DNA from: a virus
Lineage: Duplodnaviria > Heunggongvirae > Uroviricota > Caudoviricetes
Length of the DNA: 64,000 nucleotides
Direction: 5' to 3' (one strand)
Virus record (IMG/VR): IMGVR_UViG_3300031133_000383
Span: 373,044-437,043 of that record
The position numbers were made by a program, and so were the translations under genes. Of the stretch, positions 3,524 through 61,478 are shown in pieces (within the stretch, counting starts at the first letter, position 1; every line of letters starts with the position of its first letter). The notes beneath the pieces are model-generated. The model made no database searches, was not told where the DNA came from, and worked only from the letters and a program-made list of their open reading frames with translations.

Positions 3524-4726
3524 ATGACAAACCGCCTTGAACTACTGTTAGCGAATACGCCTATTGAATCTGTTTTTGATCATTCAGATTTTAGTGTTGT
3601 TACAGAAGCTGCTAATGTAGGCGAAGTCAGTTTCAATCATTTTGATTTTTTAACTGATAAATCGTATACCGCTACTACCTTTTTCACTGGTCTTGTTCAA
3701 TCTCTTTCTTTTATCTTTCCAAATTTTACGATTTCCGAAATTAAAAGTTTAAGTTCTACGGCTTACTTTTACTTTGACATTTTCCCATTTCCTCAGATTA
3801 TGAATGATATGCATGCTTCTAATTTCAAAGTGCATGTACTTAATCGAAAAGATACAGTTCGTGTAAATTTCAACCTCTTTACTCTTTCGTTTCGTTTTAA
3901 AAAATGGATTTTTAGTTTTAGTGATACGTTCAAAAAAGAACAGGAAATGGAATCCATTTCTTTTGTTAATATTCATACTGCTATGCTGAGATCTTTTAAA
4001 GAATTGATTTCAGATGTCATGATTAAGCCACCTCTATTATTTAATAATGCAATCTTCAAGAAAATTATTGAAAATAAATCTAACTTTTCCTTTAACTCCA
4101 TGCGTTATGAAGATGTTTTTACACACGAAACTGATGTCAATTTTTCTAGGCATATTAAAAAAATTCAACCGTTGATGATTGTAGGCGATCTTCGCTCTAT
4201 CAAGGGTGTTGCTCAACCAGCTATGTTGTATGTAAAAGGTGATATTCGCGTAACTCGTAATGTTTTGAATGTTGCTAAATCAAGTGAAACACAAGTATAT
4301 TTTCGTTATGAATCCCTTGATTTTATAGACTCGCTATTTTCAGTGACTTTTTCTTCTGAGCAACTATCTTCTTTACGAAAGATACTTAATTTGATTAACA
4401 AGATTAATATTTGTTTTGAAAAAGAAGCGTATTCAGGTATTGAAGTCATTCGTATTAACAATTCCAAAAAAGCTATTTATAATTTGATTAAAGAAAAAAA
4501 TGCATTTCATATTACATTTGGTAGAACTAGTATTCATATCAATCGTTATATTGAATGCTCTATAATTATTAATAATTCATACCAATCTATCAAAGTTGAA
4601 AGTTTTGAAGAAGCTTTTAATTGTATTTATCAGGCATTCGCTGTACACGTTGCTAATTATTTTAATATTGATCAAAGCCTAGTGAATGATGACTATATCA
4701 ACTTATTGGAAATGGTTCGTCATTGA
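3524..4726 (+). CDS. hypothetical protein, C-terminal M-x-x-x signature group
   Basis: 400 aa; ends LLEMVRH. Confidence 0.8.
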   Translation: MTNRLELLLANTPIESVFDHSDFSVVTEAANVGEVSFNHFDFLTDKSYTATTFFTGLVQSLSFIFPNFTISEIKSLSSTAYFYFDIFPFPQIMNDMHASNFKVHVLNRKDTVRVNFNLFTLSFRFKKWIFSFSDTFKKEQEMESISFVNIHTAMLRSFKELISDVMIKPPLLFNNAIFKKIIENKSNFSFNSMRYEDVFTHETDVNFSRHIKKIQPLMIVGDLRSIKGVAQPAMLYVKGDIRVTRNVLNVAKSSETQVYFRYESLDFIDSLFSVTFSSEQLSSLRKILNLINKINICFEKEAYSGIEVIRINNSKKAIYNLIKEKNAFHITFGRTSIHINRYIECSIIINNSYQSIKVESFEEAFNCIYQAFAVHVANYFNIDQSLVNDDYINLLEMVRH

Positions 4727-4784
4727 CTTTTTTTTATAATTTTATATACTTCTTTTATTTTTATAATATTATTTCGGAGAATAT

Positions 4785-5492
4785 ATGATTAAAATTATGG
4801 AGTATATTGGCCCAGTCTTTACTGTAAATAATCCTCGATATAAACTAGTGCCTATTGAAGAAACAATACAATCTGCCTGTGTCAATGATGACTGTATCAA
4901 TTATCATCAGCCTCTTTTTGATGGTGTCTTTTGTCCTTTTTGTGGGATGAAAGGAGAGTCTTTTTCTTATACAGTTGATCGTTATTTAACACAAGAACTT
5001 GTTCCCGAAGATGAACAATGTAATCTCTATCTCAAAGCAATAGAACTAGAATCCAGAACGCTTCGTTTTATTCCAAAATTCAAGTCTTATCAATATAGCC
5101 CAAGTTTTTCGTTAATTCATTTTGTTTCAAAAAAATGTTCAAATTATACTTGCCAAGACAACAACCACGAATATCATGATGATTATGATTTTTGTTATCA
5201 GTGTGGATCTAAACTTTCAAATAATATTGATTCTCAACAAAATACTATATTTATTGATGATATTTTAAAAGAACAGAAAAATCAAATATCCTTAATTTTA
5301 TGTGATTCAATAGAACATTATGTTCTGCATAATTTGGATGAATTGATTTCAACACCGTTATTTGATCAGTTTATTATTGATTTCATGAACAGAAAAGAAT
5401 ACAAATCAATTATTAAAGAACTTGAATATATTTATGGTACAGGTACAGTTGTTGTTGAAAATAGACATATAACTTATCGACCAGATATTTAA
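4785..5492 (+). CDS. protein with two zinc-ribbon repeats
   Basis: CxxxxC..FCPFCG and CxxxxC..FCYQCG. Confidence 0.7.
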   Translation: MIKIMEYIGPVFTVNNPRYKLVPIEETIQSACVNDDCINYHQPLFDGVFCPFCGMKGESFSYTVDRYLTQELVPEDEQCNLYLKAIELESRTLRFIPKFKSYQYSPSFSLIHFVSKKCSNYTCQDNNHEYHDDYDFCYQCGSKLSNNIDSQQNTIFIDDILKEQKNQISLILCDSIEHYVLHNLDELISTPLFDQFIIDFMNRKEYKSIIKELEYIYGTGTVVVENRHITYRPDI

Positions 5493-5664
5493 GAATTCTC
5501 TGTTATTTATGAATACATATTGAATTTTTAAGAGGATGGGAAAAATATCTTGACCTTTAGTAAAAATCTTGATATTATTATAGGTATTAAAGCCTACAGC
5601 AGGTTTCCTATGGAGTATGCTAAGTGTTTAATGCATACAACTAACTGTTACTGCTGTTTATTTT

Positions 5665-5738
5665 GCGGAATTGGTCTAGTGGTTGGGCCGTAGCCTTCCA
5701 AGCTACAGAGACGAGTTCGATCCTCGTATTCCGCTCCA
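5665..5738 (+). tRNA. tRNA-Gly(TCC)
   Basis: Loop CTTCCAA, U73, CCA. Confidence 0.92.
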
Positions 5739-5895
5739 AATTTCAACAATGTGGTGGTAAAACAGCCCTATCTAAAAAAAATAAATATCCGATGAATAAT
5801 TAAAGCCTCTAAAAGAGGCTTTTTTATTGTCTTTAGTCTTCTTCTATTATATATTATATGTTAATATTATCATCTATTTTCATAGGCATTTAAAA

Positions 5896-6915
5896 ATGGC
5901 AACAACATTCTTTCACTTTTTATTTTACTTTTTATTTCCAGAATATGTAAAATTCAACAAGATTAAATACAAAGTACGTCGAAAATTTACATTTACAAAG
6001 GTTATTTATTATGCAAAATTTGATAATTATTTTTTGAAAATTTCATATTCATATGTAGATGTTATTAAATCTATTTTTTTCAAAAAAGATTTTGAAAATT
6101 TAAATTTTTGTCTTTGGTATAAAGATATTTGCATTACACGAGTTAATTTGAAACATACTTATACAAGTATCTTTGTTAATAATTATGATATTATTTTTTA
6201 CTCTATACAATATTTAAATGATTTTATTAGTTGTTTAGAGCAAAATGTAACATCTGATAACTTATTGGAAATTTGTAATCAATTAATCGATATTCCTTCA
6301 CCTGAGTTTATTATGTTTACATTTTACTATCAAAACTCTTATTCAATACGGTTTCCAAGTTATTCTAATGTCCCATTTTTCGGTTCAGTTTCAGACACTG
6401 AATCTTTTCATGATTTATGTGTTCTTATTTATGATAAATTTATTTATTTTAATAACTTTGAATCATTAAATAATAAAGATACCGTAGTAAAAGCTATGAA
6501 AGTATATCAAACATTGCAGACAATTTATTCTAAATACTCCATATCTGTCAATCGTTTTTCTAGACCTGAGAGTGGTCTTGTATTTCTAACATGTATCAGT
6601 TATGGTTCAACAGATGTATCTACAAATGATTTTTTAATTTTAGATTTAGATAACAAAACAGGTATTCTGTTTATCAATTTTTGGAGCGATAGCTACCTCT
6701 TTAATGTTGGTTTTACTTCCTCATCTTTACCTGAATTAGTTCGTCTTGTTATGCAGTATCATGCTGGCGTTTATTTGATGATAAATAAATCACCTATTAT
6801 TGAGAATAGTGAAAAGCCTTATTTTTATAGTAATTTTAATAGTGAGTTCGATTATAAATTTGATAAGATGGATGACTCAATGTTAGATATAATTCAAATG
6901 ATGCATTTAAAATGA
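5896..6915 (+). CDS. hypothetical protein, C-terminal signature group
   Basis: Long F/Y/N-rich ORF; ends IIQMMHLK. Confidence 0.75.
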   Translation: MATTFFHFLFYFLFPEYVKFNKIKYKVRRKFTFTKVIYYAKFDNYFLKISYSYVDVIKSIFFKKDFENLNFCLWYKDICITRVNLKHTYTSIFVNNYDIIFYSIQYLNDFISCLEQNVTSDNLLEICNQLIDIPSPEFIMFTFYYQNSYSIRFPSYSNVPFFGSVSDTESFHDLCVLIYDKFIYFNNFESLNNKDTVVKAMKVYQTLQTIYSKYSISVNRFSRPESGLVFLTCISYGSTDVSTNDFLILDLDNKTGILFINFWSDSYLFNVGFTSSSLPELVRLVMQYHAGVYLMINKSPIIENSEKPYFYSNFNSEFDYKFDKMDDSMLDIIQMMHLK

Positions 6916-6986
6916 AATTTTCAAATTTTTAACAAGTCTTTCTTAATATGTTGACTTTAGTTAATATCTACTGTATTATTGCGTCT

Positions 6987-7082
6987 TATTGGATTGAGAT
7001 GACGCTGAAATCGCCTCACAGAAAGGGCAGATCATCTTGTGGTATAGCGGCGATTGAATGGGTTCGAGGCCCATGTCCGATA
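6987..7082 (+). ncRNA. tRNA-like RNA (acceptor stem + T arm, no D stem or anticodon arm)
   Basis: TATTGGAT/GTCCGATA stem, ATGGG-TTCGAGG-CCCAT T arm, AATCGCC/GGCGATT helix; promoter at 6951. Confidence 0.55.
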
Positions 7083-7219
7083 CTGAATTGAATGATTTAG
7101 ACATTTGGTTTAAATCGTAATTATATAGAAGCATAAACAAAAAAAATAAGCACCACATACTTTTTATTAGGAAAATGGTGCTGTATTTTAAACTATAATT
7201 TTTTAATCTTGGAAAATAT

Positions 7220-7867
7220 ATGATTATAGAAAATGATGTCGTAAATTATATAGATTCTTACTTTAAAAAAAAGTTTAAAAATGTCAAATTGTATAATCCT
7301 ACCGTCACTTTATTTTCATCGTTACAAAATCAGGACGCACCTCATCGGTCTTATTCAGCTAAAATGACTATCGATGATAAACCTATAAATTTCTTAGTCT
7401 ATTATACTTTAAAAGATAATGAAGAAGGTGTTTTGTATCTAAACTCTATTAAAGTTAGTTTTATTAAGCAAGATATTAATCTTGTACTAAGTTTTATTCG
7501 CTCTATGGGACAATTAAAAAACTCTTCTGTTTTGGAAGATGTTAATACTTATCTCCTTAATATCTATAATTCAAATCTTCCACAAAAAATCAATATCAAC
7601 TTTCTTCAAAATTTTCATTTAAATAATATTCTTGTTCATAATGAAATCCGCATATACGACCTAAAAGATAACTTATCAGAAAATGAACATTCTGATTTTT
7701 TGATTGCTACTCATATTGGTCGTAAAAGTTCCATTTTAACTGATTTATCTTTGCCAGCTTTACCAAAATACGGTTCTGCAAATGTAGATGAAATCAGAAG
7801 CTTCCTTGATGCCTACCAGATTATAAAAAACGAAATTTTTGAATTGTTTAAGATCAACAGTTATTAG
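7220..7867 (+). CDS. hypothetical protein, C-terminal signature group
   Basis: 215 aa; ends LFKINSY. Confidence 0.75.
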   Translation: MIIENDVVNYIDSYFKKKFKNVKLYNPTVTLFSSLQNQDAPHRSYSAKMTIDDKPINFLVYYTLKDNEEGVLYLNSIKVSFIKQDINLVLSFIRSMGQLKNSSVLEDVNTYLLNIYNSNLPQKININFLQNFHLNNILVHNEIRIYDLKDNLSENEHSDFLIATHIGRKSSILTDLSLPALPKYGSANVDEIRSFLDAYQIIKNEIFELFKINSY

Positions 7868-8094
7868 TTTATTCATATGCTATTGAAATTATCCATTTAA
7901 GAACACCGAAAAGATTGTTGTCTTTTTCTATATTTTTTGGTATAATTACTTCCTATTCAAAGAGGAATGACCATTATGAACAAGATTATTTCTGCTATTG
8001 TTTTTGCACTGGCTTTTTCATCTTTCAATGCTAATGCAATGATTGATGTTTCGGACAAAAAATAAACCGTCACCTAATTCAAGAGGCACTACTA

Positions 8095-8568
8095 ATGTCA
8101 AAATCTATTCAGACAGCATCCACTATTGCTGATATGACTTATGAACAGAAAATTGAATATTTCTTATTTGATGATGGTTCTGTTTCCGGTCTGCGTTACA
8201 AAGAGCGTAGTAAATTTTGGAGAAGCATGGGGTTGTGGGAGGGTGGTTATTTTCCTGAACTGCATCAGGTTGCCTTGAAACTCATGATGTATAAGGGTAA
8301 TAAAGACAACCTTGATCAGACTATTAACTCGATCTCTGATATTTTACCTTTTCTGAAAGAATATCAAGGCATCAAACAGTTGGGTGTTTTTGAGCACACT
8401 CTTTCTGAAAATGGTCGATTCATTGTCGAGATTTCGGCATCGTCATATGAATTGGTTCTTTATCGCTATCATCGTCGCAGCGTTATAAAAGCATTTGATG
8501 ACTTGCGTTCTTTGGTTGAATATGTTCAAGAATATCATTACTATGAAAATTCTATGATTGCAGAATGA
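8095..8568 (+). CDS. hypothetical protein
   Basis: GAGG RBS, 157 aa. Confidence 0.8.
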   Translation: MSKSIQTASTIADMTYEQKIEYFLFDDGSVSGLRYKERSKFWRSMGLWEGGYFPELHQVALKLMMYKGNKDNLDQTINSISDILPFLKEYQGIKQLGVFEHTLSENGRFIVEISASSYELVLYRYHRRSVIKAFDDLRSLVEYVQEYHYYENSMIAE

Positions 8569-8588
8569 TTTAACAGTGCAAAAAACTG

Positions 8589-8696: not shown

Positions 8697-8715
8697 GACA
8701 GCATGAAATGAATAC

Positions 8716-8845: not shown

Positions 8846-8889
8846 GATAATAGGTAGTAGTTGTTGTACTGTCTAGTTTGAAGAGATAT

Positions 8890-9019: not shown

Positions 9020-9021
9020 AT

Positions 9022-9095: not shown

Positions 9096-9100
9096 ACACA

Positions 9101-20005: not shown

Positions 20006-20168
20006 GGAGCCTGCGTGAAAGTGGGTTGGGTAGCAGCGGTGTTGCGGGCGAGCTACTACGAAGAGTGAGTCAGAAGCTGTGATTCCTCTTCATGGGAATG
20101 GAGAATTGAAGTGTTGTTGGCTTTGATTAAAACGGCTGGGTGAGTCGGCTCCTTCCCAAACCTAATTT
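20006..20168 (+). ncRNA. structured ncRNA family B, copy 3 (with insertion)
   Basis: Shares GGAGCCTG, GGTTGGGT, AGCGGTGT-GCGGGC, TTGATTAAAACG, TAATTT; promoter TTGCTA-17-TAAAAT at 19944. Confidence 0.75.
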
Positions 20169-20174
20169 AGTTGG

Positions 20175-20445
20175 AGTTGCTGGTTAATGTATAGCTATTA
20201 TACAAACGGTGACTCTTGATATGGTTAAGAGTGATGTAGTTTCCACTATACAACAGCGGGCAGAAATGGATAGTTGTCATCATACTGTACCCAATTAAAG
20301 AGCAATACCTACTGCAATAGAGACTGGGCTTTTGTAGTAGCAATTAGAATCCATCTCAGCAGATAGAGTGGAGCGATAGGCGTTATTTGACCTTGACCTT
20401 TGAAGCGATGACATCTTGGTGGCTTGGTGGTGAAAAGTAACCACA
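20175..20445 (+). ncRNA. candidate ~270-nt structured ncRNA
   Basis: No ORF; multiple hairpins; followed by terminator 20452-20486. Confidence 0.5.
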
Positions 20446-20575
20446 TATATTAAAGCAATCTGTTCAAAACAGGTTGCTTTTTTTTATAAAAATCATAGTT
20501 AATTGTTAGTTTTCTTGTTTTTATTTTCTGCTTATGGTATAATCAATTTCCAATCTCTTACTAGGATTACTTATT

Positions 20576-20836
20576 ATGGAACGAGTATCAATTCAAAACA
20601 TTGTTGTGCGATTTTTCTCAGAGCGTTCACAAGCGGCTGATCAAGCAGGTATTATGAATATGAAAGTCTACCAACATGATAATATCAATCAATTCGTAGT
20701 TTGTTCAGATATTTTGGTAGAACACCCCGAAATCTTCGATACAACTGGCGTTATTTTCAGTGAAAAAACTCAAAAAAAGAATATTGAGTCTCGCCTTTGG
20801 ATTGCTGAGTTTATTAAGGATCTGAAAGAAGCCTAA
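20576..20836 (+). CDS. hypothetical protein
   Basis: AGGA RBS, promoter. Confidence 0.75.
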   Translation: MERVSIQNIVVRFFSERSQAADQAGIMNMKVYQHDNINQFVVCSDILVEHPEIFDTTGVIFSEKTQKKNIESRLWIAEFIKDLKEA

Positions 20837-24259: not shown

Positions 24260-24862
24260 TTATATAGTAAACGGCTTATTGACATTGCTATGAGATTTTT
24301 CAGCAGCATCTCTTAGGTACTTTTGCTTTTTTTCGTACATTTCCAATAGTTTATCTGCATAACACTCTATCTCCGTATTTTTCATCAGCCTTGGAACAGT
24401 AGGTTCAACCCTTTCAATTTCTACTTTTTTTGGTTTTTCAATAATTACTTTTTCAACCTTGATTTTTTCAGGTTTTGGGGGTTTTGGAGGCTTTACAGGT
24501 TTAACCTTGGGTTCAGGCTTTGGACGATTCTTGATTTCTTCTAATTGGATAGCTCTTTTTTCAGCACGCTCTTTAAGGTATTCACCACTTCTATCAATCA
24601 ACTCTTTTATGCCTTCATAGACAGGTCTATGAACGTTTGAAAGGGCTAATGCACCACTTGCAAACAATCCTACTGATGTAAATCCTGCTGTACTGGTGTA
24701 CGCTTGATCAACGTGGGCAACTGACATTGCTGCAGCACTTATACCTGCAACAATACCTACTTTCAGCATCAAAGCGATTTTAGAATTGATTTGTTCTGCC
24801 ATTTCAGTATGATTATCAATCACTTCTTGTGGTATTTTATTCTTGAACAGTCTCATTATCAA
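24260..24862 (-). CDS. hypothetical membrane protein with Pro/Lys-rich linker
   Basis: Two hydrophobic segments; PKPEPKVKPVKPPKPPKP. Confidence 0.7.
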   Translation of the reverse strand: MIMRLFKNKIPQEVIDNHTEMAEQINSKIALMLKVGIVAGISAAAMSVAHVDQAYTSTAGFTSVGLFASGALALSNVHRPVYEGIKELIDRSGEYLKERAEKRAIQLEEIKNRPKPEPKVKPVKPPKPPKPEKIKVEKVIIEKPKKVEIERVEPTVPRLMKNTEIECYADKLLEMYEKKQKYLRDAAEKSHSNVNKPFTI

Positions 24863-37989: not shown

Positions 37990-38326
37990 ATGAAAAAAAA
38001 TATTAGACAATGTTTTGATCAGTTAATGATATGTCAATATGAGTATTTATGATATGGGTGTTGCAGCCAACCTGAAATCAACTAATTTTACTTATTTGGA
38101 CTTTGCAAAAACGGATGATACTTGTTATGTTTCCTATAATTTTTTAAAATTATATATAAAACAGAATACTTTCATGCCTATTTTTCATGAGTTTCCTGAT
38201 TTTTATTCAATATATAACAATCATAAAGTTTTTGAGTCATTGTGTGTTGACTTCTATAATGATTATATAAGTTAAAAACCTCTTATTCCTGATAAAATAT
38301 TGGTTTTGTCTATGTCAACTATCTGA
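37990..38326 (+). pseudogene. degenerate fragment of the ~255-aa family
   Basis: FHEFP..CVDFYNDY, then out-of-frame DKILVLSMSTI*. Confidence 0.6.
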
Positions 38327-41581: not shown

Positions 41582-42577
41582 ATGGCAAAAATCTTAACAG
41601 GAGATAGACCAACAGGTTCACTTCATCTTGGTCATTTTGTCGGTTCCTTACGCAATCGTGTTGAACTGCAGCATTTACACCAGCAAACCATTTTGATTGC
41701 TGATAATCAGGCGTTGACTGACAATATGGGGAATCCTATAAAAGTCCGTGATAACGTCATTGAAGTTGCCAAAGACTATCTAGCGTGTGGCATCGATCCT
41801 ACTAAGACAACGATTTGTGTCCAGTCACATCTACCAGCTATTGCCGAATTGACAATGTTGTATCTCAACCTTGTAACCGTTTCTCGTTTAGAACGAAATC
41901 CTACCATTCGCGATGAGATTAAAGCCAAGAATTTTGAGCGAAGTATCCCCGCAGGCTTCTTGGCTTATCCAGTGGCTCAAGCCGCTGACATTACTGCATT
42001 CAAAGCCGATCTTGTCCCAGTGGGTGAAGACCAGCTTCCATTGATTGAACAGGCGAATGAAATCGTCCACAAGTTAAACACTCAGATAGGTTTTGAGATT
42101 GTTCCATCCATCAAAGCACTTACTTCAACAGTGGGACGACTACCAAGCCTTGATGGCAAGTCTAAAATGAGCAAATCGCTTGGTAATACGATCAATCTGT
42201 ACGCAAGCATGAAAGATATTCAAAAAGCCGTTAATTTGATGTTTACTGACAGTAGTCATCTTCGTGTACAAGATCCCGGCCAAGTGGAAGGTAACGTGGT
42301 GTTTACCTACCTTGATGCGTTTGATCCTGATGTGAATGAGGTGGCTAATCTGAAAGAGTTCTATCAACGTGGTGGATTAGGTGATGGCACTTTGAAAAAG
42401 CGGCTGGTGGGAGTTTTAGAGACTGTTATTGCTCCTATCCGAGAACAAAGACTGTTGCTAAATACTCAGCATGATTTTGTACTGGATGTGTTGAAGCAAG
42501 GCACAGCGAAAGCCCAACTAGAAACGCATCAAAACGTCAATGAAATTAAAGATGTTTTTGGTTTTTTCAAATTTTAA
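41582..42577 (+). CDS. trpS: tryptophanyl-tRNA synthetase
   Basis: TGDRPTGSLHLGH (HIGH), VPVGEDQ, KMSKS. Confidence 0.97.
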   Translation: MAKILTGDRPTGSLHLGHFVGSLRNRVELQHLHQQTILIADNQALTDNMGNPIKVRDNVIEVAKDYLACGIDPTKTTICVQSHLPAIAELTMLYLNLVTVSRLERNPTIRDEIKAKNFERSIPAGFLAYPVAQAADITAFKADLVPVGEDQLPLIEQANEIVHKLNTQIGFEIVPSIKALTSTVGRLPSLDGKSKMSKSLGNTINLYASMKDIQKAVNLMFTDSSHLRVQDPGQVEGNVVFTYLDAFDPDVNEVANLKEFYQRGGLGDGTLKKRLVGVLETVIAPIREQRLLLNTQHDFVLDVLKQGTAKAQLETHQNVNEIKDVFGFFKF

Positions 42578-45224: not shown

Positions 45225-45226
45225 TT

Positions 45227-48187: not shown

Positions 48188-49777
48188 GTAAACTACCCCG
48201 CCCTGAAGGACGGAGCTTTTTTAGTTTTGTTGAAGCCTGATTCTATCAGTAAACTGATTAAAGTCTGCTTCTTTGGGTAGTTTACGATACCCTTACTGGC
48301 TTCTTTAAAATACAGATCTCTCCATTCTTTAAATTTACCACTACTTTCTAAATACTTTCTTAGTATATTTCCTGCTCCATTTATATCCGAATTTATCAAT
48401 ATCCCTTCCTTGCTTTTGAACATCCCTCTTTTGGTTCTTCTACCAAGATAGTTCTCTTGGTGTTTCATTGGTTCTAGGTCAATGAAACTTGTTTTTGATG
48501 TGTAAGATTCTTCGCATCTTACTACTTCAATACCTTTTGCTTTTGCCTTATATTCAAGTACGTCCTTGAATTTGGCATGAGGAATAAATACAAAGTTTTG
48601 ATTATTAATTTTACCGATATTAATGTCTTGTTTCTGTTCTTTATTTTCACCTACAATTATCTTGTTTATATTGTGTTTCACACAATATTCTACAATAAAC
48701 TTTGTAGAACGGTGGAAATAATCATTAATTTTATTATTTCTTTTATGAGTTAACTTATTTTTCTTTTTAATTAATTCATTCGTTTCTAATTTTTCATTCT
48801 TGCGTAGTTCTATTTTGCTTTGCAACTTAGATGCTTTTTTATTGAAAAATTGATTTATAGATTTAATATATTTACCATCAATAATAAAAGAACTTCCGTT
48901 TTTAGAATTAAAACATCCTGCCAAATTATTTAAACCCGGATCTATTGATAGATATTGACCATTATCATCTTTTCTTGTCTCGATAGTTGTTTTGTAAACA
49001 ACTTCGAGTTTAAATTGAATAGGAGCTTTTCCATGTGGAATAATTCGTATTTCATTAATGGTTTGAATATGTTTTGGTACTTTAAATTCAAAACAATGAC
49101 TTGTATTAGGATAAAGTTTTTTAAATGCTTTAGAAGCATTGAATTTGAAAATATTAACATTATCCAAGTTAGATGACTTTACTTTATCAAATAAAATACT
49201 ACGTCCTTGAATAACAATGTTTGACAATACCGTTTCATTGTTTTTCTTTTTATATCGAGCTATTTTCACTTCTTTATTATAAGTCCCTTTCTTCTTGGCT
49301 TTCAACAAGCCAAGAAAGGAATTAAAATCACGATGAGCTAATTGAACGACTTGCTGCGAGCAGTCGTTTAAAAGAATAGAGAAATTTTCATTGGTTTTAC
49401 ATAAATGGTAATTATCCTTAAAAGCCAATATTTTACCATCAAAATAATTTTGTCGAATTTGATAAAGAGCAAAATTGTACATAAGAGAAGAATGAGTAGC
49501 GTGTTTAACAAGAAAATCATGATCAAGAGGGGCAAGAGAATTAAGCCACATTTGGCAAACTCTAGTTTCAATCAATGGATTTTTCTTTTTAGTGTTACGT
49601 TTCAAAACTTTCCCCTAAGACAACTAATAAATCAGTTGACAAAATAATAGAAGACATTATAGGATACTAAAAATAAAAGTCAACAAAGAATCAGTTGTCA
49701 ATTAAAAGAAGGCAGTTGAGACTATTCCTCCCCGCCCTGAAGGACGAGGCTTCCAAGTCTCTAATTGATTTCAAAGG
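48188..49777 (-). mobile_element. IS200/IS605-family (IS1341-type, tnpB-only) element
   Basis: Both ends carry GTCCTTCAGGGCGGGG hairpins; left end preceded by TCAC as in the 63615 copy. Confidence 0.85.
48193..49605 (-). CDS. tnpB: RNA-guided endonuclease TnpB
   Basis: SIDPGLNN (RuvC I), IIVGE, EESYTSK, NSDINGAGNI. Confidence 0.92.
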   Translation of the reverse strand: MKRNTKKKNPLIETRVCQMWLNSLAPLDHDFLVKHATHSSLMYNFALYQIRQNYFDGKILAFKDNYHLCKTNENFSILLNDCSQQVVQLAHRDFNSFLGLLKAKKKGTYNKEVKIARYKKKNNETVLSNIVIQGRSILFDKVKSSNLDNVNIFKFNASKAFKKLYPNTSHCFEFKVPKHIQTINEIRIIPHGKAPIQFKLEVVYKTTIETRKDDNGQYLSIDPGLNNLAGCFNSKNGSSFIIDGKYIKSINQFFNKKASKLQSKIELRKNEKLETNELIKKKNKLTHKRNNKINDYFHRSTKFIVEYCVKHNINKIIVGENKEQKQDINIGKINNQNFVFIPHAKFKDVLEYKAKAKGIEVVRCEESYTSKTSFIDLEPMKHQENYLGRRTKRGMFKSKEGILINSDINGAGNILRKYLESSGKFKEWRDLYFKEASKGIVNYPKKQTLISLLIESGFNKTKKAPSFRAG

Positions 49778-53171: not shown

Positions 53172-53915
53172 ATGAACAACGAAATATTGGAATTATTTAC
53201 TTCAAAGTATTTTTACAATGATGTATCAATCTATGATCAAAAAACATTCAAAGATATTATTAGCATTCATCCTGTCCTGTATGCAGATGATTTTTTAAAT
53301 TTGCCATCTTCTTTCGATATTATAGATTTTGAAAAATACTTTTATCCTATCAGTGCTGATTTTCAGATTATGGTTGCTACTAAAAAAATGTACAGTAGAC
53401 AAAAACATATAGTGATAGGGTTTTATGAAAAAAATGATACTGTCTTTATTCCTATTCCTGATTTAGGCAGTCAGTTTGAACATATCACTCAAGACTTGGG
53501 TTTTGTAATGAATCACAACTATTTCACAGGTGTCAAGGACTATGGTTTTATTCATTTAATGCAAATTACAAATGGTAAAATATATAATATATTTTCAGCT
53601 TTATTTGAGCCAAAGTACGAAAAAAGTGTTTTGTGTAAAAATTTAATTGAAGTTATTGTAACAGAGGCTTACACTGCTGAGAACAACCATGCATTGAATT
53701 TGAAATTGTATTCGAATGAAAAAATCATCAAGCAGGTCACTATTGAATTTGATGTTGAGATTACAACAATGCAGTCTATCATTGAAAAATTCATGTTGCC
53801 CTTCAATCTTACAAAATCCGAATTATTGTCATTTTCTATTCAACCTGCATTGACTGCTGATTTTGTTGAATCGTTTACGCCCACTGATGAAATTTTAAAG
53901 TTGATAAATATTTGA
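53172..53915 (+). CDS. hypothetical protein, paralog of 52195
   Basis: VFIPI, YGF; ends LKLINI. Confidence 0.8.
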   Translation: MNNEILELFTSKYFYNDVSIYDQKTFKDIISIHPVLYADDFLNLPSSFDIIDFEKYFYPISADFQIMVATKKMYSRQKHIVIGFYEKNDTVFIPIPDLGSQFEHITQDLGFVMNHNYFTGVKDYGFIHLMQITNGKIYNIFSALFEPKYEKSVLCKNLIEVIVTEAYTAENNHALNLKLYSNEKIIKQVTIEFDVEITTMQSIIEKFMLPFNLTKSELLSFSIQPALTADFVESFTPTDEILKLINI

Positions 53916-53977
53916 TTTTTTCCTTTGACGATTCATGTAAAAAGGTTATTATGTAATTAACAAACAGGAGAAATAAA

Positions 53978-54196
53978 ATGAAATTTTTTGATAGCAAAGG
54001 AAAGATTTTAACAGGTTATGTCATTTTTGATCGTGATGGTTTCTTGAAAACAGAAGTCGAACAAGAACTCAACAATGTGCATATTGATTCTTATCCTGCA
54101 CGTTCAGATCTTGTACGGTGTTTTTATGCTAAACGATTTTGGAATGCCAATAAAGATGGAGCAGGATCACATCAGTCTGTTTTTGTAAAAATCTAA
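53978..54196 (+). CDS. hypothetical protein
   Basis: AGGAG RBS, terminator. Confidence 0.75.
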   Translation: MKFFDSKGKILTGYVIFDRDGFLKTEVEQELNNVHIDSYPARSDLVRCFYAKRFWNANKDGAGSHQSVFVKI

Positions 54197-54278
54197 GCCT
54201 TTTCGAAGGCTTTTTTCTTGCGTGTATAACGGTATTTTGATATAATCGTGCCATTCAATTACTCACTAGGAGTTACGT

Positions 54279-55382
54279 ATGGAATTGTTTTTGATTGGCA
54301 TTCCACTTGCTTTCATTTTTCCCTTGATTTGCAAGCTTATTTTTCCACATGCTGTGACTGTGAAAGAGTACATACTCACAGCCGGTGTCAATGTCGTTTG
54401 TGTGGTTCTTTTTAGTTTCCTTATTGGTTTTCATGCCACCTATGATGAAGAAATTTGGAGTGGACAGGTTACCAAAAAATACTCTGAGCGTGTTTCCTGT
54501 GATCATTCTTATTCCTGCAATTGTCGCCAAGTTCAGTCAGGAACTGACAGTCGAGGCAATGCCACCTATATTCAACAGTGCGATACCTGCTATGAACATG
54601 CCTACGATATTGACTGGGTTGTTGCAAGCAATATTGGAAAGCTTGATATTGATCGAGTGGATCGTCGTGGTGAAAAAGAACCACCACGTTTCAGCAAAGT
54701 TAAAATTGGTGAACCTTTTGCAATGACTCGTATGTTTAAAAACTACATTAAGGCTTCTCCCAATACTTTGTTTAAAAACCCTGAATCATTGATTGCTCCT
54801 TTTATTGGCAAGCTACCAGCTTACCCATTAATCACAGATTACTATCATATTCAGCGAGTGTTTACACAGGATGTTGTAGTGGATAATACTTTGAATATCA
54901 TGCTCAATGAAATGATGCGTAAATGGGGACCGGGTAAGCAAGCCAATGTGCTGGCTGTATTTTTAGGTGAAGGCTACAGTCAAGATTATTTTCAAGCTCT
55001 CCAATCTTTCTGGTTGGGTGGTAAAAAGAATGATGTAGTCATAGTCACTCAGCTTGAAAAGGATGGTAAAATAGGTTGGACCCGTGTCTTTTCTAGGGCA
55101 GAAAATGCTGTTTTTGAAAAATCCATTGAAATGGATGTCAATAACATGGGTGTTTTCACACCAGTGGCTTTTGTTAAAATCATTGATACCAATATCAATG
55201 AGCGTTATAAGCGAATGGATTTTGAGCAATTCAAGTACTTGCTGGAAGATGCAAAACCTTCTACTAATGCCTTGATTATTGCTATCGTCATGTCACTGCT
55301 TATCAACTTGGCCATGAGCTTCTTTATCGTCAAGCAAGATGTTTTTGGTGAATCAAATAGTTTTCGTCGCCGTATGTTTTAA
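54279..55382 (+). CDS. conserved large-phage membrane protein with Cys/His-rich periplasmic region
   Basis: 2 N-terminal + 1 C-terminal TM; CDHSYSCNC..CDTCYEH; WLGGKKNDV. Confidence 0.8.
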   Translation: MELFLIGIPLAFIFPLICKLIFPHAVTVKEYILTAGVNVVCVVLFSFLIGFHATYDEEIWSGQVTKKYSERVSCDHSYSCNCRQVQSGTDSRGNATYIQQCDTCYEHAYDIDWVVASNIGKLDIDRVDRRGEKEPPRFSKVKIGEPFAMTRMFKNYIKASPNTLFKNPESLIAPFIGKLPAYPLITDYYHIQRVFTQDVVVDNTLNIMLNEMMRKWGPGKQANVLAVFLGEGYSQDYFQALQSFWLGGKKNDVVIVTQLEKDGKIGWTRVFSRAENAVFEKSIEMDVNNMGVFTPVAFVKIIDTNINERYKRMDFEQFKYLLEDAKPSTNALIIAIVMSLLINLAMSFFIVKQDVFGESNSFRRRMF

Positions 55383-55475
55383 GCGAATCAAAATATAAAA
55401 TAATGCTTGTTTCATTATGCTAATGATGTTAAAATGCACACCTAACTTAATAAAACTCTTAAGGAGAGTCAACCG

Positions 55476-56099
55476 ATGAATCAAATTAAAAATCAAAAAG
55501 GCAGTGCCACAACCCTTATTATCGTTCTTGTCGCCTTTTTTGGATTGATGTTTGTGTTTGCTGCAGGTATTGGTTTGTATGCAGTCAATAAACGAAATTC
55601 TTTTATTGCTGTTGAAAATGGCATTGTTTTTAGCTACGAAGAATCAAAAAACGTTCATTCTAACTACGTGCTAAAGATTAAGGAAATGGCACAAGTGCCT
55701 GCAATGGCTACCGCTCAACTGGCCACCATTATTCGAGAAGCTATTCAAGGACGGTATGGTGATGATGGTTCTAAAGCAGTCTTCCAGTTTATTAAGGAAC
55801 AGAACCCCACTGTTGATCAAAGCCTGTATACCAACATTCAAAAAGAGATTACGGGTGGTCGTTCAGACTTCAAAACATCAATTACTCGGGTAAATGACCG
55901 AAAACAAGTAGCTACCAATATGTTGGATGATACCGTAGGTGGGTTCTTCCTTAAGTTTATGGGTATGCCTCGTAAGCATTTTGGGTACGATGGTGATAAG
56001 GATGACTACCCTGTCATTATGTCAGAACAATCGGCTGAGACGTTTAAGACTGGTATCGATAAAGGCGTTGAATTGATGCCAGCACCTACTACAAAGTAG
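55476..56099 (+). CDS. LemA-like membrane-anchored protein
   Basis: N-terminal TM, helical body; adjacent to the 54279 membrane protein. Confidence 0.6.
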   Translation: MNQIKNQKGSATTLIIVLVAFFGLMFVFAAGIGLYAVNKRNSFIAVENGIVFSYEESKNVHSNYVLKIKEMAQVPAMATAQLATIIREAIQGRYGDDGSKAVFQFIKEQNPTVDQSLYTNIQKEITGGRSDFKTSITRVNDRKQVATNMLDDTVGGFFLKFMGMPRKHFGYDGDKDDYPVIMSEQSAETFKTGIDKGVELMPAPTTK

Positions 56100-56226
56100 C
56101 AGGTGACCGCTTATTGAAAGATCGAAAAACTTCAACCTTGTGTTGGAGTTTTTTTTTGAGTGAAATCGTTGCTTTTTAGGAAAAAAATTGATAAAATAAG
56201 GGTTCAATTAAACTTGTCTTCAAGAG

Positions 56227-56610
56227 GTGTTTATGAGCAAACAAAAATTCAGTTCCAATAAATTGAGTCGTCTAGAAGAAGTTTACTTTGTGGCTGATGA
56301 AGCAGGTCTTGTTCGCGACAGTAAAGAATACGAAAAAACTAAGTCAGATCGCTATCCTTATTGGCATGATCCCGAAACTGGTCGAAAGTTTCGTTACAAT
56401 GAAGAGACTAATTGCTTCGATATTAGTACGTTGGATATGGATCGTTGGGCCAATTCACAACTAATTTCCGTGGATCTACCAAAAACTCTCGAAGGATTGT
56501 CTTTGTTGATTCAGCAGGCTCATTTTATTACAGATCCTAAACCAATTGACGAAAGCATTAAGCAAAAAGCACCTCACTCTAGGAAATGTAAAAATATTCG
56601 ACACCAGTAA
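56227..56610 (+). CDS. hypothetical protein
   Basis: GAGG RBS. Confidence 0.75.
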   Translation: MFMSKQKFSSNKLSRLEEVYFVADEAGLVRDSKEYEKTKSDRYPYWHDPETGRKFRYNEETNCFDISTLDMDRWANSQLISVDLPKTLEGLSLLIQQAHFITDPKPIDESIKQKAPHSRKCKNIRHQ

Positions 56611-56688
56611 AACAATATTCAAATATATCTAAATTTTATTGGCCTATTACTTGTTTTATGATATACTAAATCAACTTAAAATACGAGA

Positions 56689-57543
56689 TTGCCTATGAAC
56701 AAGAATTATAAAATATGCGTAAAACTTAATTATGATCAAGAAACCGCTGAAAAAAAGTCGCGTATTATTGAACTACAAGATTTTATTCATAGGGTCATGC
56801 AAAATCATGGATGGCGTGAATCTGAACCTAATGACAACGTTATTGATTATGTCTTCTCAATTGGTGGCGATGGTACGATGTTGCATACCATGCAATCTCA
56901 TGTTCAAACACGTTCAGTAGTGGTTGGAATCAATGCAGGAAATGTCGGGTTTCTCACCCCTTATAATATCGAAAATGTTTTTGATCTATCAGTGTTCAAA
57001 TTCTTGGATGATAGCTTTACACCACGCATTGAAGATCGTAGTATTCTACAAAATAGTTTCAAGAATAGTTGTGATTCCAGTCTTGCTGTCAATGAGTATA
57101 GTTTCTATGCCAGCAACGTTAATGACATTCTTGACTACTCGATTGAAGTGGAATACAAAGGACATGCTAGCCCTGCTGGTCACTACCGTGCGAATACTCT
57201 TTTGATTTCTGGACCCTGTGGTTCGACTGCTTACAACATGAATGCAGGCGGTGCTATTGTTGACCCTACTGTTCGATGTATGCAAATCATGATGATTGCT
57301 CCTACAATTCTTGGTATTCGTCCTTTGATTATTGGTCGAAATTCAACTATCAACATTCGCTTCAAAAATGATGTGAAAGTTTTTATCGATGGCATGCCTT
57401 ACAGAGAAATTAAAGCATCAGAAAGTGAAGTTTTTTCCATCAATCTTTTGTTAGAAGAATCAAAAGTAATGCTACCAAATGATTTCAACTTTTACAGTAT
57501 GTTAAGCCAAAAGCTTCACTGGAACAATGGGAGTGGTGTATGA
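56689..57543 (+). CDS. nadK: NAD(+) kinase
   Basis: GGDGT, GINAGNVGFL, NE, GSTAYNMNAGG. Confidence 0.92.
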   Translation: MPMNKNYKICVKLNYDQETAEKKSRIIELQDFIHRVMQNHGWRESEPNDNVIDYVFSIGGDGTMLHTMQSHVQTRSVVVGINAGNVGFLTPYNIENVFDLSVFKFLDDSFTPRIEDRSILQNSFKNSCDSSLAVNEYSFYASNVNDILDYSIEVEYKGHASPAGHYRANTLLISGPCGSTAYNMNAGGAIVDPTVRCMQIMMIAPTILGIRPLIIGRNSTINIRFKNDVKVFIDGMPYREIKASESEVFSINLLLEESKVMLPNDFNFYSMLSQKLHWNNGSGV

Positions 57544-57779
57544 GCGACTATGAAGATGCAAAAGCTGCTGGTTTGACTCAGCAGGATCGTTGGATGGATG
57601 GTGTTGATCATCATCCTATGTCTAAAAAGTTAATGGCTTTTTTACAGGATCATGACTTGCATGATTATGATGACTACTTTTGTTGGAAATCAGGTGGTGA
57701 TGGTGATAATGGTGAAAATTTGATGTATCAAATGGATGCATTCTTTGAATTATTGGATAAACAAAAAAATGAAAAATAA
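57540..57779 (+). CDS. hypothetical phage protein
   Basis: FCWKSGGDGDNGE motif. Confidence 0.8.
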   Translation: MSDYEDAKAAGLTQQDRWMDGVDHHPMSKKLMAFLQDHDLHDYDDYFCWKSGGDGDNGENLMYQMDAFFELLDKQKNEK

Positions 57780-58392
57780 ACAGTTTTTTCTATTTTTTCA
57801 ACCTATATTGATAACTGTCATTTTGTCAATTCTTTTAATGACCCATATCTATATTGAAGTGGGTATATCCTCTCGCCTCATGCCAAGTATTGGTTTGTTT
57901 TTGGGACATACATCTTTGTATTTCTTTTTTATCTACAAAAAAGCAATAATGATACGTTCAGCTTTTCATATTGTGTTTATGTCCGTAATACTGTTACTTG
58001 GATTCTTTAATCAGACATTTGTTCTTTATGATTTGTTTCTAAATACTCTTTGTGCGTTAGGTTTTATTGCTGCTGCTGTCTTTGAATTACGCAGTGTTAA
58101 TAGCATACTAAAAAACAATGATTTTGAATCCAATTTTAACGCCAAACCTTCGATGTACATATATATCAATAATGATTTGAAGCTATTGTACAAATGGAAA
58201 TTATCAACACCTCCTAAATTTGGATCGGATCATTTCACTTATCTTAATAATGATATTCAATTTGATAAAAAAGGCATTAAAAACACCGATTTGACTTATG
58301 ATATTATCAAACAATATTTAAACACAAGTCTATTAACAATAAAACAATTTGAAAAAAATGATTTGAAAACTATCGAAATGCTTTATCATTGA
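57769..58392 (+). CDS. 4-TM membrane protein, C-terminal signature group
   Basis: Hydrophobic N-half; ends TIEMLYH. Confidence 0.75.
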   Translation: MKNKQFFLFFQPILITVILSILLMTHIYIEVGISSRLMPSIGLFLGHTSLYFFFIYKKAIMIRSAFHIVFMSVILLLGFFNQTFVLYDLFLNTLCALGFIAAAVFELRSVNSILKNNDFESNFNAKPSMYIYINNDLKLLYKWKLSTPPKFGSDHFTYLNNDIQFDKKGIKNTDLTYDIIKQYLNTSLLTIKQFEKNDLKTIEMLYH

Positions 58393-58581
58393 TATTTTTC
58401 TTATAGTCATCAATAAAGAAGAATAAGCTATTAGATAGCCAGTATTGCTATTTTCATATATTATGATACCATTAATCTATTTAAAAACAGGTATTCATTA
58501 TGAAGATATTTGCACAAGCCTATCTTGATACTTACCATTTGCCATGGAGTCAAAGCATTCAGCCTGCTGATAAGGTATTAC

Positions 58582-59767
58582 CAAATCTTAGTAAAAAGAA
58601 TGCCCCTCGATTCATCTATGGGGATGAATTTTTATGATTCAAATTATTGACTTTATTGATAATTTATTGTAAAATTCTGAGATGAATAATCTAACGACCA
58701 TTAAAACTCTAAAAATTAGAGTTAAAGACAAACATAAAGGCGTTCTTTGCCAAATGGCGAAGAACGTTAATCTCGTTTGGAACTTCGTTAATGAAATCAG
58801 TACTCGCTCAATTGTTGAGCGTAACAAATTCCTTTCCGCTAGAGATCTTCAAAAATACACCGATGGTTCTTCAAAACTACTCAAATTGCATAGTCAAACT
58901 ATTCAAGGAATTTGTGATGAATATGCTACTCGTAGAATTCAATTCAAGAAAAGAAAATTAAAATGGCGAAAATCGGTAGGATCTAGACGATCTCTTGGTT
59001 GGGTTCCTTTTAAGGCTAGTGCTGTTTCTTATAAAAATGGTCAAATTCATTTTAATAAACATCATTTTTCTATTTGGGACAGTTACGGACTGTCCAAATA
59101 TAAATTTAAAAGTGGTTCTTTTAATGAAGATGCTCGTGGTCGATGGTACTTCAACGTAGCAGTTGAAGTTCCAAGAACATTCTCTTCAAGCCAAGGTAGT
59201 GTAGGGATTGATCTTGGGTTTAAAGAATCTGCTGTCTGCAGTGACGGTTTTAAAACAGAAAGAAATAGGATTTATCGTTCTTATGAAAAGAAATTAGCTA
59301 TTGCTCAACGTTCTAACAACAAAGTTAGAACGAGAGCTATTCACGCTAAAATTGCTAATATTCGAAAAGATACACTTCATAAATTCACACATCATTTAGT
59401 CAAAAACTACAGTGAAATTTATGTAGGTGATTTGAGCATTAAGAAAATGCTCAAAGCCAAAAGAGGAAAGTCTACGTTAGATGCCGCTCATGGCATGATA
59501 AGAAGTATGCTGGTTTATAAATGCGATAACGCAGGCATACATCACAATGTGAATGTAGACGAAAAAAACACTACCCGCACCTGTCATTCGTGTAAGTCTC
59601 TAACAGGACCGAAAGGATTAGATGGGCTGCGAATAAGAGTATGGACTTGTTGTGTGTGTGGTGACACACACAATCGGGATGAAAATTCCGCTAAGAATAT
59701 ACTTGAGGTCGGACATGGCCTTCTAGCAGTAGGAATCCCCTTGCTTTAGCTATGGGGTGGATGTCAA
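58582..59767 (+). mobile_element. IS605-family tnpB-only element
   Basis: Inserted 3' of TTAC, right end TCAA (IS608-like); CCCC..ATGGGG hairpins at both ends. Confidence 0.88.
58682..59749 (+). CDS. tnpB: RNA-guided endonuclease TnpB
   Basis: GIDLG, VGD, zinc ribbon CHSC/CCVC, RDENSAKNI. Confidence 0.95.
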   Translation: MNNLTTIKTLKIRVKDKHKGVLCQMAKNVNLVWNFVNEISTRSIVERNKFLSARDLQKYTDGSSKLLKLHSQTIQGICDEYATRRIQFKKRKLKWRKSVGSRRSLGWVPFKASAVSYKNGQIHFNKHHFSIWDSYGLSKYKFKSGSFNEDARGRWYFNVAVEVPRTFSSSQGSVGIDLGFKESAVCSDGFKTERNRIYRSYEKKLAIAQRSNNKVRTRAIHAKIANIRKDTLHKFTHHLVKNYSEIYVGDLSIKKMLKAKRGKSTLDAAHGMIRSMLVYKCDNAGIHHNVNVDEKNTTRTCHSCKSLTGPKGLDGLRIRVWTCCVCGDTHNRDENSAKNILEVGHGLLAVGIPLL

Positions 59768-60380
59768 ACAGTCTTGATCATTTCTATGGACGCATGGTTA
59801 TTGTGACTGAACAAATAGACGTTAACCAGTTTGCTTTAGATTCAGATTATCTAGATACTTCAAAAAAAGATACAATTTCCAATTGGAATCATTCTTGTAT
59901 TCAACAATTGCATTCTATACTGCAACAAGATATTTCGAATGGCATAACACTGGTTTGTGGTTTTCTTTTTTGATAAAAATAAAATCAGTTGTTTTGATAG
60001 TTCATTTGTTGGTTATTTTTATTTATCTACTGTTTGGGAGAATATACTCGGCGGTAGTGAAAGTTATTGTCTTGATTATGATGACATTGTTGAATATGCA
60101 AATTTCTTCAATCTACCTATGCCAAAAGTGATGTATCGTGGACTATTTGACAAGTATAAACTCATTGACATTGCTGACAAATTAGACAGCTTGACAATTA
60201 ATGGTTATATTTTGAGAACTGTTGATGGCTTTATGCGACATGAATTAAACAAGTGTGTTGCAATATATAGATCACCGACTGTTAAGAAGCTATTGTTTTA
60301 GTTATCATCTAAAAATTAAATTGACAGCTATTTTACTTTTTTGGTATACTATACATTCATTATTGATTGGAGTTAAAAAG

Positions 60381-60584
60381 ATGACTGATCGCAATATTGT
60401 TGGCATTATGTTCAGAACCTCAGAAGATTTCTTGAATATCAAGCAAATGATTGGCAATATTTATGACACCATGAACCAAGCCGACACGCCAACTATTGAA
60501 CAAACAGAAAACCATGTAGTAGGCAAAGTTGATATTGAGCTTATTGCTTGGGTAGAAAATTCAATTCCCAGTTTTTTTAAATAG
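60381..60584 (+). CDS. hypothetical protein
   Basis: GGAG RBS before ATG 60381. Confidence 0.65.
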   Translation: MTDRNIVGIMFRTSEDFLNIKQMIGNIYDTMNQADTPTIEQTENHVVGKVDIELIAWVENSIPSFFK

Positions 60585-60591
60585 GTGTTTT

Positions 60592-60780
60592 ATGGGTAGC
60601 AAATACAAAGACAAACATAAACAAACACAAACACCAGCAGAACGAAAACGAATAGCTTTCAGTGATAAGTATTCTTATTGCTCTAACTGTAGTCGTAAAT
60701 CATATACACACTCTACTTTAATTAAATATTCGAAATGTAGTTGCGGTGGCACTTATCAATCTTTTGGTTTTTCAGCATAG
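60592..60780 (+). CDS. small zinc-ribbon protein
   Basis: CSNC ... CSCGG. Confidence 0.7.
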   Translation: MGSKYKDKHKQTQTPAERKRIAFSDKYSYCSNCSRKSYTHSTLIKYSKCSCGGTYQSFGFSA

Positions 60781-60788
60781 GTATTTGC

Positions 60789-61478
60789 ATGAAAGTTAGA
60801 ATTCCATCAAGACATACTGGATTAATTCGCGAATTCTATCCTTCTGTTGATCTGAATGATTTGTATATTGCTGAACAGCATGTATTTAACGATTTTATCT
60901 TTAAATCCTGCAAGCTACAATTTTTGAATTCAATTATTTATAGAGATAGCGATAGGTATTTTATTTTATTTGAAGGATGTGTGTTTACTCTTCCAGCCAA
61001 TGTTGAAGACACCTACAATTTTGATTTGCAAATAATCATGCTGAGAGCATTTCTTCAAAATACTCAGTTCGTGAGTAATAAAAAACAATTCAATTATCTA
61101 TCACTACTTTATAGCCTATTTTTTAATGCTTCGAAACACCTTTTTAATCAATTATTTAGTAAAATATACAATAATAAAAACTATAAAGATTTCCAACTGG
61201 AAAAGGGAATGTATAATCATGAGTATGACTATTCTTTTTCATGTAATTTTTTAGATGAAAAAATTAAGTTATCTCCCGGCTTTCACAAGAAACATCTTTT
61301 TTTAAAGATTGAGTTAGTGTCGCAAAAATTCTCAAAATCATACCCAGTTAAAAATTTTTCATTGGATCAGTTTATTCTTGATTTTACGAATGATAACGGG
61401 TATAATGTAAGCTCATTTAAAGAAGCTAAAGATCATCTTCAAGACTATATTTTGTTGAGATCGATGGGCAATTATTAA
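60789..61478 (+). CDS. hypothetical protein, C-terminal signature group
   Basis: Ends LRSMGNY. Confidence 0.75.
   Translation: MKVRIPSRHTGLIREFYPSVDLNDLYIAEQHVFNDFIFKSCKLQFLNSIIYRDSDRYFILFEGCVFTLPANVEDTYNFDLQIIMLRAFLQNTQFVSNKKQFNYLSLLYSLFFNASKHLFNQLFSKIYNNKNYKDFQLEKGMYNHEYDYSFSCNFLDEKIKLSPGFHKKHLFLKIELVSQKFSKSYPVKNFSLDQFILDFTNDNGYNVSSFKEAKDHLQDYILLRSMGNY

Follow-up and report, generated by a model that had tools for sequence, protein, structure and literature searches.

We analysed a 64,000-nt stretch of DNA (hereafter the window), corresponding to bases 373,044-437,043 of a single 437,043-bp IMG/VR record (IMGVR_UViG_3300031133_000383). Window coordinates below run over this stretch, and record coordinates over the full 437,043 bp. 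The window contains 15 intact genes and one pseudogene remnant whose products end in a common short tail, centred on a Met at the fourth position from the C-terminus (-4) and with the consensus hydrophobic-hydrophobic-[E/K]-Met-hydrophobic-x-[Ile/Tyr]-stop (Table 1). A previous sequence-only reading of this DNA had listed 16 such endings. All 16 were found in the sequence, and the positions given for them mark where plus-strand genes start, with the exception of 38326, where the pseudogene remnant ends.

The tail is a real feature of this element, and more widespread than first noted. For whole-record counts we used a greedy, non-overlapping set of 530 open reading frames (ORFs) of at least 80 aa. 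Met occupies position -4 in 102 of these, with 12 expected from Met frequency (P = 4e-61), and each of the other last twelve positions holds Met in 8-16 ORFs. Enrichment over background, which the sequence-only reading had left to be checked, is thus evident in the record as a whole, as it is in the window (14 of 85 ORFs, P = 8.5e-9). Including variants with Ile, Leu or Ala at -4 or with one extra residue, some of which occur in the window, we identified about 111 carriers, representing about one gene in five and 19% of the record DNA. We additionally identified the tail on 17-19% of ORFs in four related IMG/VR contigs, which together with this record form a five-record pool of about 1.1 Mb; the enrichment of Met at -4 extends outside the "provirus" borders of these relatives. 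A 42-kb stretch of the jumbo phage XacN1 has Met at -4 in none of 47 ORFs. We found nothing relevant in the literature on the motif, the samples or megabase-sized bacterial elements.

The anatomy of the motif was described using one representative for each of 87 families, and a 14-column tail profile was built from 94 carriers. The consensus is preceded by an acidic patch at -15 to -10, where Asp and Glu make up 25-41% of residues versus 12% in the protein body. Acidic residues then fall to 0-7% at -9, -7, -6, -4, -3 and -1, with position -5, generally Glu or Lys, being 45% acidic. Hydrophobic residues are found at -13, -9, -7 (Leu, Ile or Val), -6, -4 (Met), -3 and -1 (Ile or Tyr), and nearly all carriers are hydrophobic at -1, -3 and -4. 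Information content is at background level upstream of about -15, delimiting a constant module of about 14 residues that is predicted to form a short helix.

This module is held at a fixed distance from the stop codon. When the five-record pool was scored on positions -14 to -4 only, which kept the last three residues from influencing the outcome, three residues followed the Met in 256 proteins, four in 5 and two in 1; all other stop offsets were at background, and only 4 matches to the full motif lay well inside proteins. The signal resides at second codon positions, at least 10 different codons occur at position -7, TAA, TAG and TGA are all used after the tail, and the downstream sequence is not conserved. 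These data, together with the offset counts, bear out the view that the tail is tied to the stop codon, is a feature of the protein and not of the DNA, and is under selection. As the same register is kept over about 100 families otherwise lacking similarity, the position of the chain end itself appears to be selected. A signal at the DNA level was ruled out by the codon-position evidence, and a search for upstream k-mers recovered only a weak enrichment of GAAGAT.

We assessed the relatedness of the carriers with the last 15 residues cut off. By BLAST, the 15 intact carriers of the window resolve into nine families (one of six members, one pair and seven singletons), and these include a protein with three predicted transmembrane helices, in agreement with the earlier description of several apparently unrelated families, one of them a membrane protein. 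Across the record, 85 of 113 carriers were singletons by phmmer, and the 291 carriers of the five-record pool fell into 106 BLAST components. Profile comparisons between the 20 families with at least three members, labelled here by B numbers, gave an hhalign probability below 12% in 188 of 190 pairs, although these profiles are shallow; the only links above this level were B0-B1 (68%) and B62-B63 (45%), with B0-B26 at 11%. When the last 70 residues were included, the best alignment reached both C-termini in 114 of the 190 family pairs, over a median of 13 columns. Polytopic membrane proteins, soluble in their C-terminal part, account for six to eight of the carriers. A search of 10 window carriers against PHROGs returned nothing significant. 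In our reading, the carriers comprise several clans, and possibly one very old superfamily in which the tail alone has been universally kept.

The bodies of the carriers evolve rapidly. Between two relatives, the median identity of carriers is 44%, in contrast to 71% for other genes, and only 17% of the carriers in the record have any detectable homologue in relatives. Carriers are frequently adjacent (44 pairs observed, 23 expected). The largest window family, B0, has six copies and a remnant in this record and 13-14 tandem copies in two relatives; the remnant is a deleted copy of a paralogue whose intact 261-aa form (P0065) exists elsewhere. The tandem arrays, the remnant and the low identity of the carriers substantiate the earlier suggestion of a diversifying repertoire. 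When the B0 profile was searched against 1.84 billion representative proteins, only 65 clusters were recovered, and every full-length one keeps Met at -4. The contrast is also visible locally: the tryptophanyl-tRNA synthetase (TrpRS) gene of the window encodes a protein 94-97% identical among relatives (and at most 46% identical to any TrpRS in species genomes), whereas the tail-bearing genes adjoining it are only 20-50% identical between the same elements.

Structure models of two window carriers point opposite ways on whether the tail belongs to the fold. The B0 model (45 aligned sequences, pLDDT 87.8) consists of two N-terminal helices, an antiparallel sheet of eight strands and, C-terminally, five helices. 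Its tail is predicted to form the end of the last helix, within the five-helix C-terminal subdomain (pLDDT 82-93), and could on this model be purely structural. In the B17 model (12 sequences, pLDDT 77), the tail helix, residues 355-364, follows a low-confidence linker, is itself of low confidence (pLDDT 44-52) and does not pack onto the body; such a greasy helix, left unattached, suggests the need of a partner. The two models have in common only a general layout, in which helices flank an antiparallel sheet. Searches with the B0 fold (Foldseek; PDB, BFVD and VIA-wide) found no convincing match (best Z 5.0). For B17, the best match was between the C-terminal domain and actin-capping protein (Z 8.5 over 109 residues), and the N-terminal domain matched a small toxin-immunity protein (Z 7.6); both resemblances reflect a common sheet-plus-helix layout, with kinship unproven.

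Table 1. Coordinates of tail-bearing genes in the window and of other features in the window and record.
Feature	Coordinates	Frame	Strand	Remarks
Tail-bearing orphan, 400 aa	3524-4726	window	+	Ends LLEMVRH; family B126; orthologues in 3 relatives end TLEMSxY
Tail-bearing orphan, 339 aa from ATG 5896	5896-6915	window	+	Ends IIQMMHLK, one residue beyond the motif; frame open from TTG 5827
Variant carrier, 215 aa	7220-7867	window	+	Ends LFKINSY; Ile at -4
B0 paralogue, 261 aa	35611-36396	window	+	Ends VFEMSTFV, one residue beyond the motif
B0 paralogue, 257 aa	36393-37166	window	+	Ends VLNMSKI
B0 paralogue, 256 aa	37166-37936	window	+	Ends LFSMLNV
B0 pseudogene remnant	38039-38326	window	+	Still ends VLSMSTI; internal deletion, premature TAA at 38273
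Tail-bearing orphan, 257 aa	39216-39989	window	+	Ends VNKMIAI; homologues in relatives end VRDMVxI
B0 paralogue, 260 aa	43697-44479	window	+	Ends LLEMKDI; structure modelled
B0 paralogue, 247 aa	44481-45224	window	+	Ends LLTMQVI
B0 paralogue, 252 aa	45227-45985	window	+	Ends LMKMNTI
B17 family, 366 aa	46159-47259	window	+	Ends LFKMITI; structure modelled
B11 family, 287 aa	52195-53058	window	+	Ends IKKMLNI
Variant carrier, 247 aa	53172-53915	window	+	Ends ILKLINI; Leu at -4; distant paralogue of 52195 (E = 9e-6 without tails)
Membrane carrier, 218 aa	57736-58392	window	+	Three predicted transmembrane helices; soluble C-terminal part ending TIEMLYH
Tail-bearing orphan, 245 aa	60741-61478	window	+	Ends LRSMGNY; orthologues end IRKMxxI
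TrpRS	41582-42577	window
CTA-anticodon (amber suppressor) tRNA, and tRNA-like gene with four-base anticodon call (agaa)	2904-2977 and 16119-16194	window
Gene with Lys/Arg-rich end	18906-19370	window	-	Non-carrier
Gene with Lys/Arg-rich end	24260-24862	window	-	Non-carrier
TnpB-like transposon gene	48193-49605	window	-
TnpB-like transposon gene	58682-59749	window	+
TnpB-like transposon gene	321692-323293	record
phrog_33734 paralogue	18366-20576	record	+
phrog_33734 paralogue	191517-193853	record	-	Shares 45% identity with orphan proteins encoded by the Xanthomonas jumbo phages XacN1 and Xoo-sp13
MoxR/VWA/zincin cluster	154405-162637	record
ClpP-like match	237437-237613	record		Weak
Six paralogues of a protein of about 600 aa	20688-24188, 53903-57360, 70264-73787, 326356-329947, 238249-240114, 295083-296909	record		In four of the six cases a partner of about 550 aa follows

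We compared the tail with known systems in which unrelated proteins share a terminal module. In T4-type phages, a short hydrophobic peptide at the extreme C-terminus docks unrelated proteins, including gp55 and gp33, on one hub, the sliding clamp, which is the arrangement that we propose here for a different set of proteins. The DNA polymerase gp43 of RB69 ends LFDMFDF, and so fits a hydrophobic-hydrophobic-acidic-Met-hydrophobic-x-hydrophobic pattern with Met at -4, as does the tail; on the tail profile it nevertheless scores 5.9, and 93 of the 94 carriers from which that profile was built score higher (10th-90th percentile 10.0-18.7). Moreover, the bearers of clamp tails are replication and transcription proteins, whereas those identified here are about 100 orphans. 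Poxvirus ankyrin/PRANC-F-box proteins and SOCS-box proteins likewise combine a variable body with a constant C-terminal adaptor box, and form large, fast-evolving, tandemly duplicated families of sizeable viral or mobile genomes in which, as here, only the C-terminal module is constant. However, these boxes span 30-50 residues, keep no fixed distance to the stop codon and bind parts of eukaryotic ubiquitin ligases, in contrast to a module of about 14 residues.

Shorter terminal signals offer closer parallels in size. The internal proteins of T4 bear an N-terminal capsid targeting sequence that the prohead protease removes, and encapsulin cargo-loading peptides are C-terminal; both are short terminal addresses that bring diverse and changing proteins into an HK97-type shell. 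The tail is similarly short and terminal, but differs from the T4 sequence in being C-terminal and anchored to the stop, and from encapsulin peptides in its consensus and in its presence on some membrane proteins. Class II PDZ ligands and ssrA-type ClpX degrons need a free C-terminus, where the last residue and the third from the end are hydrophobic. The PDZ class II pattern, hydrophobic-x-hydrophobic-COOH, is present in the tail, although the conserved part is longer and centred on the invariant Met. The -LAA ending of ssrA-type degrons differs from the M-hydrophobic-x-[I/Y] ending found here, leaving only the dependence on the terminus in common.

The signals for secretion by the type IVB (Dot/Icm) machinery have been described as an E-block together with a hydrophobic residue among the last three, with about a third of known type IV effectors containing transmembrane segments and positively charged tails marking type IVA substrates (PMC12981334). 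These signals place an acidic stretch some 10-17 residues from the end before hydrophobic last residues, as in our tail, and occur on hundreds of otherwise unrelated orphans, some with transmembrane segments, comparable to the carriers identified here. The tail has a hydrophobic residue in its last three to four positions and an upstream enrichment of acidic residues, which are depleted at the end except at -5. In contrast, Dot/Icm signals are loose, with no invariant residue and no fixed register, and the tail has both.

We propose that the tail, anchored at the chain terminus, serves as a docking handle for one partner, an interpretation that we consider somewhat better than even. The element encodes a very large repertoire of proteins of about 190-370 aa that rapidly duplicate and diverge; their bodies range from soluble alpha+beta folds (in the two modelled families) to polytopic membrane proteins. 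In this model the free C-terminus and the residues next to it would plug into a closed-ended hydrophobic pocket of a common partner; a specific activity, or binding to a target, would come from the variable body, and the constant tail would link every member to the same machine or place. The strict register, the occurrence of the tail on both soluble and membrane proteins, the predicted detachment of the B17 tail, and the constancy of the tail on bodies that evolve fast all point to docking. As to the partner, supposing that docking occurs, a hub or adaptor complex is a tentative candidate, and an export or packaging receptor and a protease recognising a C-terminal degron are each rather improbable.

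Several results weigh against this interpretation, the most direct being that our searches for a reader were negative. PDZ_2 (PF13180) is absent from the five records, other PDZ models not having been searched, and neither a Clp-type AAA_2 domain nor a DnaN clamp (PF00712) was found in the element and its relatives. For a gp45-type clamp (PF02916) we found one match below the cut-off (18 bits), which is probably spurious as it falls inside a B0 carrier. VirB4 (PF03135) and T4CP (PF02534) are absent from this record, and TrbI (PF03743) and T2SSE (PF00437) gave nothing above the cut-off in the five records. All of these searches covered records that are pieces of a longer replicon, and the reader could come from the host. 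The sequence-only reading had postulated a portable address tag read by one factor. The stop-locked tail on families that cannot be aligned, membrane proteins included, upholds part of this claim; a reader was not found, and full portability is not established, as the tail never occurs on a protein with a known domain (no Pfam domain on any of 112 carriers).

Separately, we identified in the record a cluster of two MoxR-type AAA+ proteins (the one tested has a BRCT domain) and a DUF2201 protein that combines a zincin with a VWA domain. It is conceivable that this cluster represents a peptide-reading or peptide-processing machine.

The same lack of known domains also counts in favour of the strongest alternative, which is nonetheless doubtful: that the tail is the structural end-helix of one hyper-diverged superfamily of paralogues, capping the fold or forming an oligomer interface, and not an address. 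The carriers have a narrow length range (188-364 aa from the 5th to the 95th percentile, 217-274 aa interquartile) and a shared composition rich in Phe, Tyr, Ile, Asn, Cys and His, close to the F/Y/N-rich proteins of about 200-400 aa described by the earlier reading. Some family pairs have 40-50 C-terminal columns in common, and these columns, the narrow lengths and the missing domains together suggest possibly one ancient superfamily. The tandem arrays and the weak profile links reported above fit this alternative, as do the confident B0 tail that ends a helical subdomain and the sheet flanked by helices in both models. However, structural C-terminal helices usually tolerate the gain or loss of terminal residues, which is difficult to reconcile with 256 proteins in register and 6 out of it. 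The presence of the tail on polytopic membrane proteins, the detached, low-confidence tail of the B17 model, and the lack of profile-profile signal between bodies in nearly all family pairs argue likewise against this alternative. Chance, biased composition, or a promoter, terminator or coupling site in the DNA at gene ends deserves practically no credence. Codons for Ile, Tyr, Asn and Lys are indeed common in this AT-rich genome, and Met at -4 amounts to a single codon, ATG, but the adjoining tail positions show no Met excess, and the P value of the enrichment, the diversity of codons at conserved positions and of stops, the unconserved downstream sequence and the XacN1 stretch all speak against such an origin.

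Two further alternatives assign the tail to a specific pathway, and we consider both improbable. The tail could be an export or packaging signal, either a translocation signal similar to that of Dot/Icm or a cargo-loading peptide of a particle, with Lys-rich tails as a second class. The acidic patch and hydrophobic last residues match the Dot/Icm features, the carriers with transmembrane helices and the excess of Lys/Arg-rich ends among non-carriers are in keeping with this, and the record encodes a DnaK 70-73% identical to Gammaproteobacteria together with ART-PolyVal and PBECR5 domains, which are typical of proteins delivered together with DNA. We nevertheless found no VirB4, T4CP, TrbI or T2SSE/DotB-like ATPase in the records searched, and neither Terminase_6N nor a tail sheath in this record; known type IV signals are degenerate, membrane proteins are unlikely as capsid cargo, and a substrate set amounting to 20% of all genes would have no precedent. 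Slightly less probable still is a C-terminal degron, by which the tail would time the turnover of proteins by handing them to a protease of the host or the element, of the ClpXP, Lon, FtsH or Tsp type. A strict distance to the free C-terminus is a hallmark of ssrA-type recognition by ClpX, and a hydrophobic tail on both soluble and membrane proteins would be expected of FtsH or Clp substrates. On the other hand, the sequence is unlike -LAA or other described bacterial C-degrons, neither a Clp-type AAA_2 nor a PDZ domain was found on the element, which gave only a weak ClpP-like match, and it is hard to see how about 100 fast-evolving genes would all keep their own destruction signal.

The record has a GC content of 31%, no 16S rRNA was found in it, and its 26 tRNA genes include several Met and Ser copies. 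A CTA-anticodon (amber suppressor) tRNA lies in the tRNA array, and a tRNA-like gene has a four-base anticodon call. IMG/VR labels this record a virus (CheckV completeness 98%) and the relatives proviruses. One of these "proviruses" has been cut from a contig of 1,917,244 bp (JGI 3300034157, Ga0370506_000001; region at about 970-1190 kb), in which orphans and tail carriers continue on both sides of its borders and one flank encodes an RND efflux pump (OEP, ACR_tran, MFP). Synteny with this relative is limited to the last 113 kb of the record (324-437 kb). The continuation of carriers past the borders indicates that the element is probably much larger than 437 kb, and it may be megabase-sized. 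The phage setting assumed in the sequence-only reading is therefore doubtful, given the position of the relative in a 1.9-Mb contig with tagged flanks; in this record, moreover, no virion gene was detected among those sought, the capsid and portal families not having been searched. The element could be a huge phage, a plasmid-like element or something else.

Recognisable genes in the record comprise DnaK, NAD-dependent ligase, the MoxR/VWA/zincin proteins, ART-PolyVal, PBECR5, an MFS-acyltransferase fusion and peptidase M3. The DnaK similarity points to Gammaproteobacteria only broadly. XacN1 shares one orphan gene with the record, and one of the two phrog_33734 paralogues contains a Prok-RING_4 finger. 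TnpB-like transposon genes occur in the window and elsewhere in the record; 100 kb from the 470-aa form lies a copy with 90% identity to it, and this form is at most 47% identical to proteins of species genomes (Uabimicrobium, cyanobacteria). We additionally identified six paralogues of a protein of about 600 aa, which, like their partners, have no Pfam or PHROG match. Finally, we noted a possible second class of tails, with at least four Lys or Arg in the last 10 residues, in 10.7% of non-carriers versus 2.4% of internal windows, and in 20 of 99 non-carriers of at least 300 aa. Basic C-termini are common in bacteria, which limits the weight of this class.

In its broadest form, which we put forward tentatively and regard as unlikely to hold in full, the docking interpretation would describe a megabase-scale, phage-like bacterial element with a proteome-wide C-terminal addressing code. 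One fifth of its genes would be interchangeable, fast-evolving modules on a Met-x-x-Ile-COOH handle that plugs into a single machine, either as a bacterial counterpart of viral F-box and SOCS-box adaptors or as a new route of cargo loading or export, with Lys-rich tails marking a second set. Met at exactly -4 is a simple mark by which to recognise such elements in metagenomes, where they are currently mis-split into "proviruses". If the tail is indeed a docking handle, a single 14-residue peptide would open about 100 proteins per genome to study, as bait for their common machine and as a tag by which to relocate or remove them, and would define how a giant, unclassified mobile element puts one fifth of its coding capacity to use.

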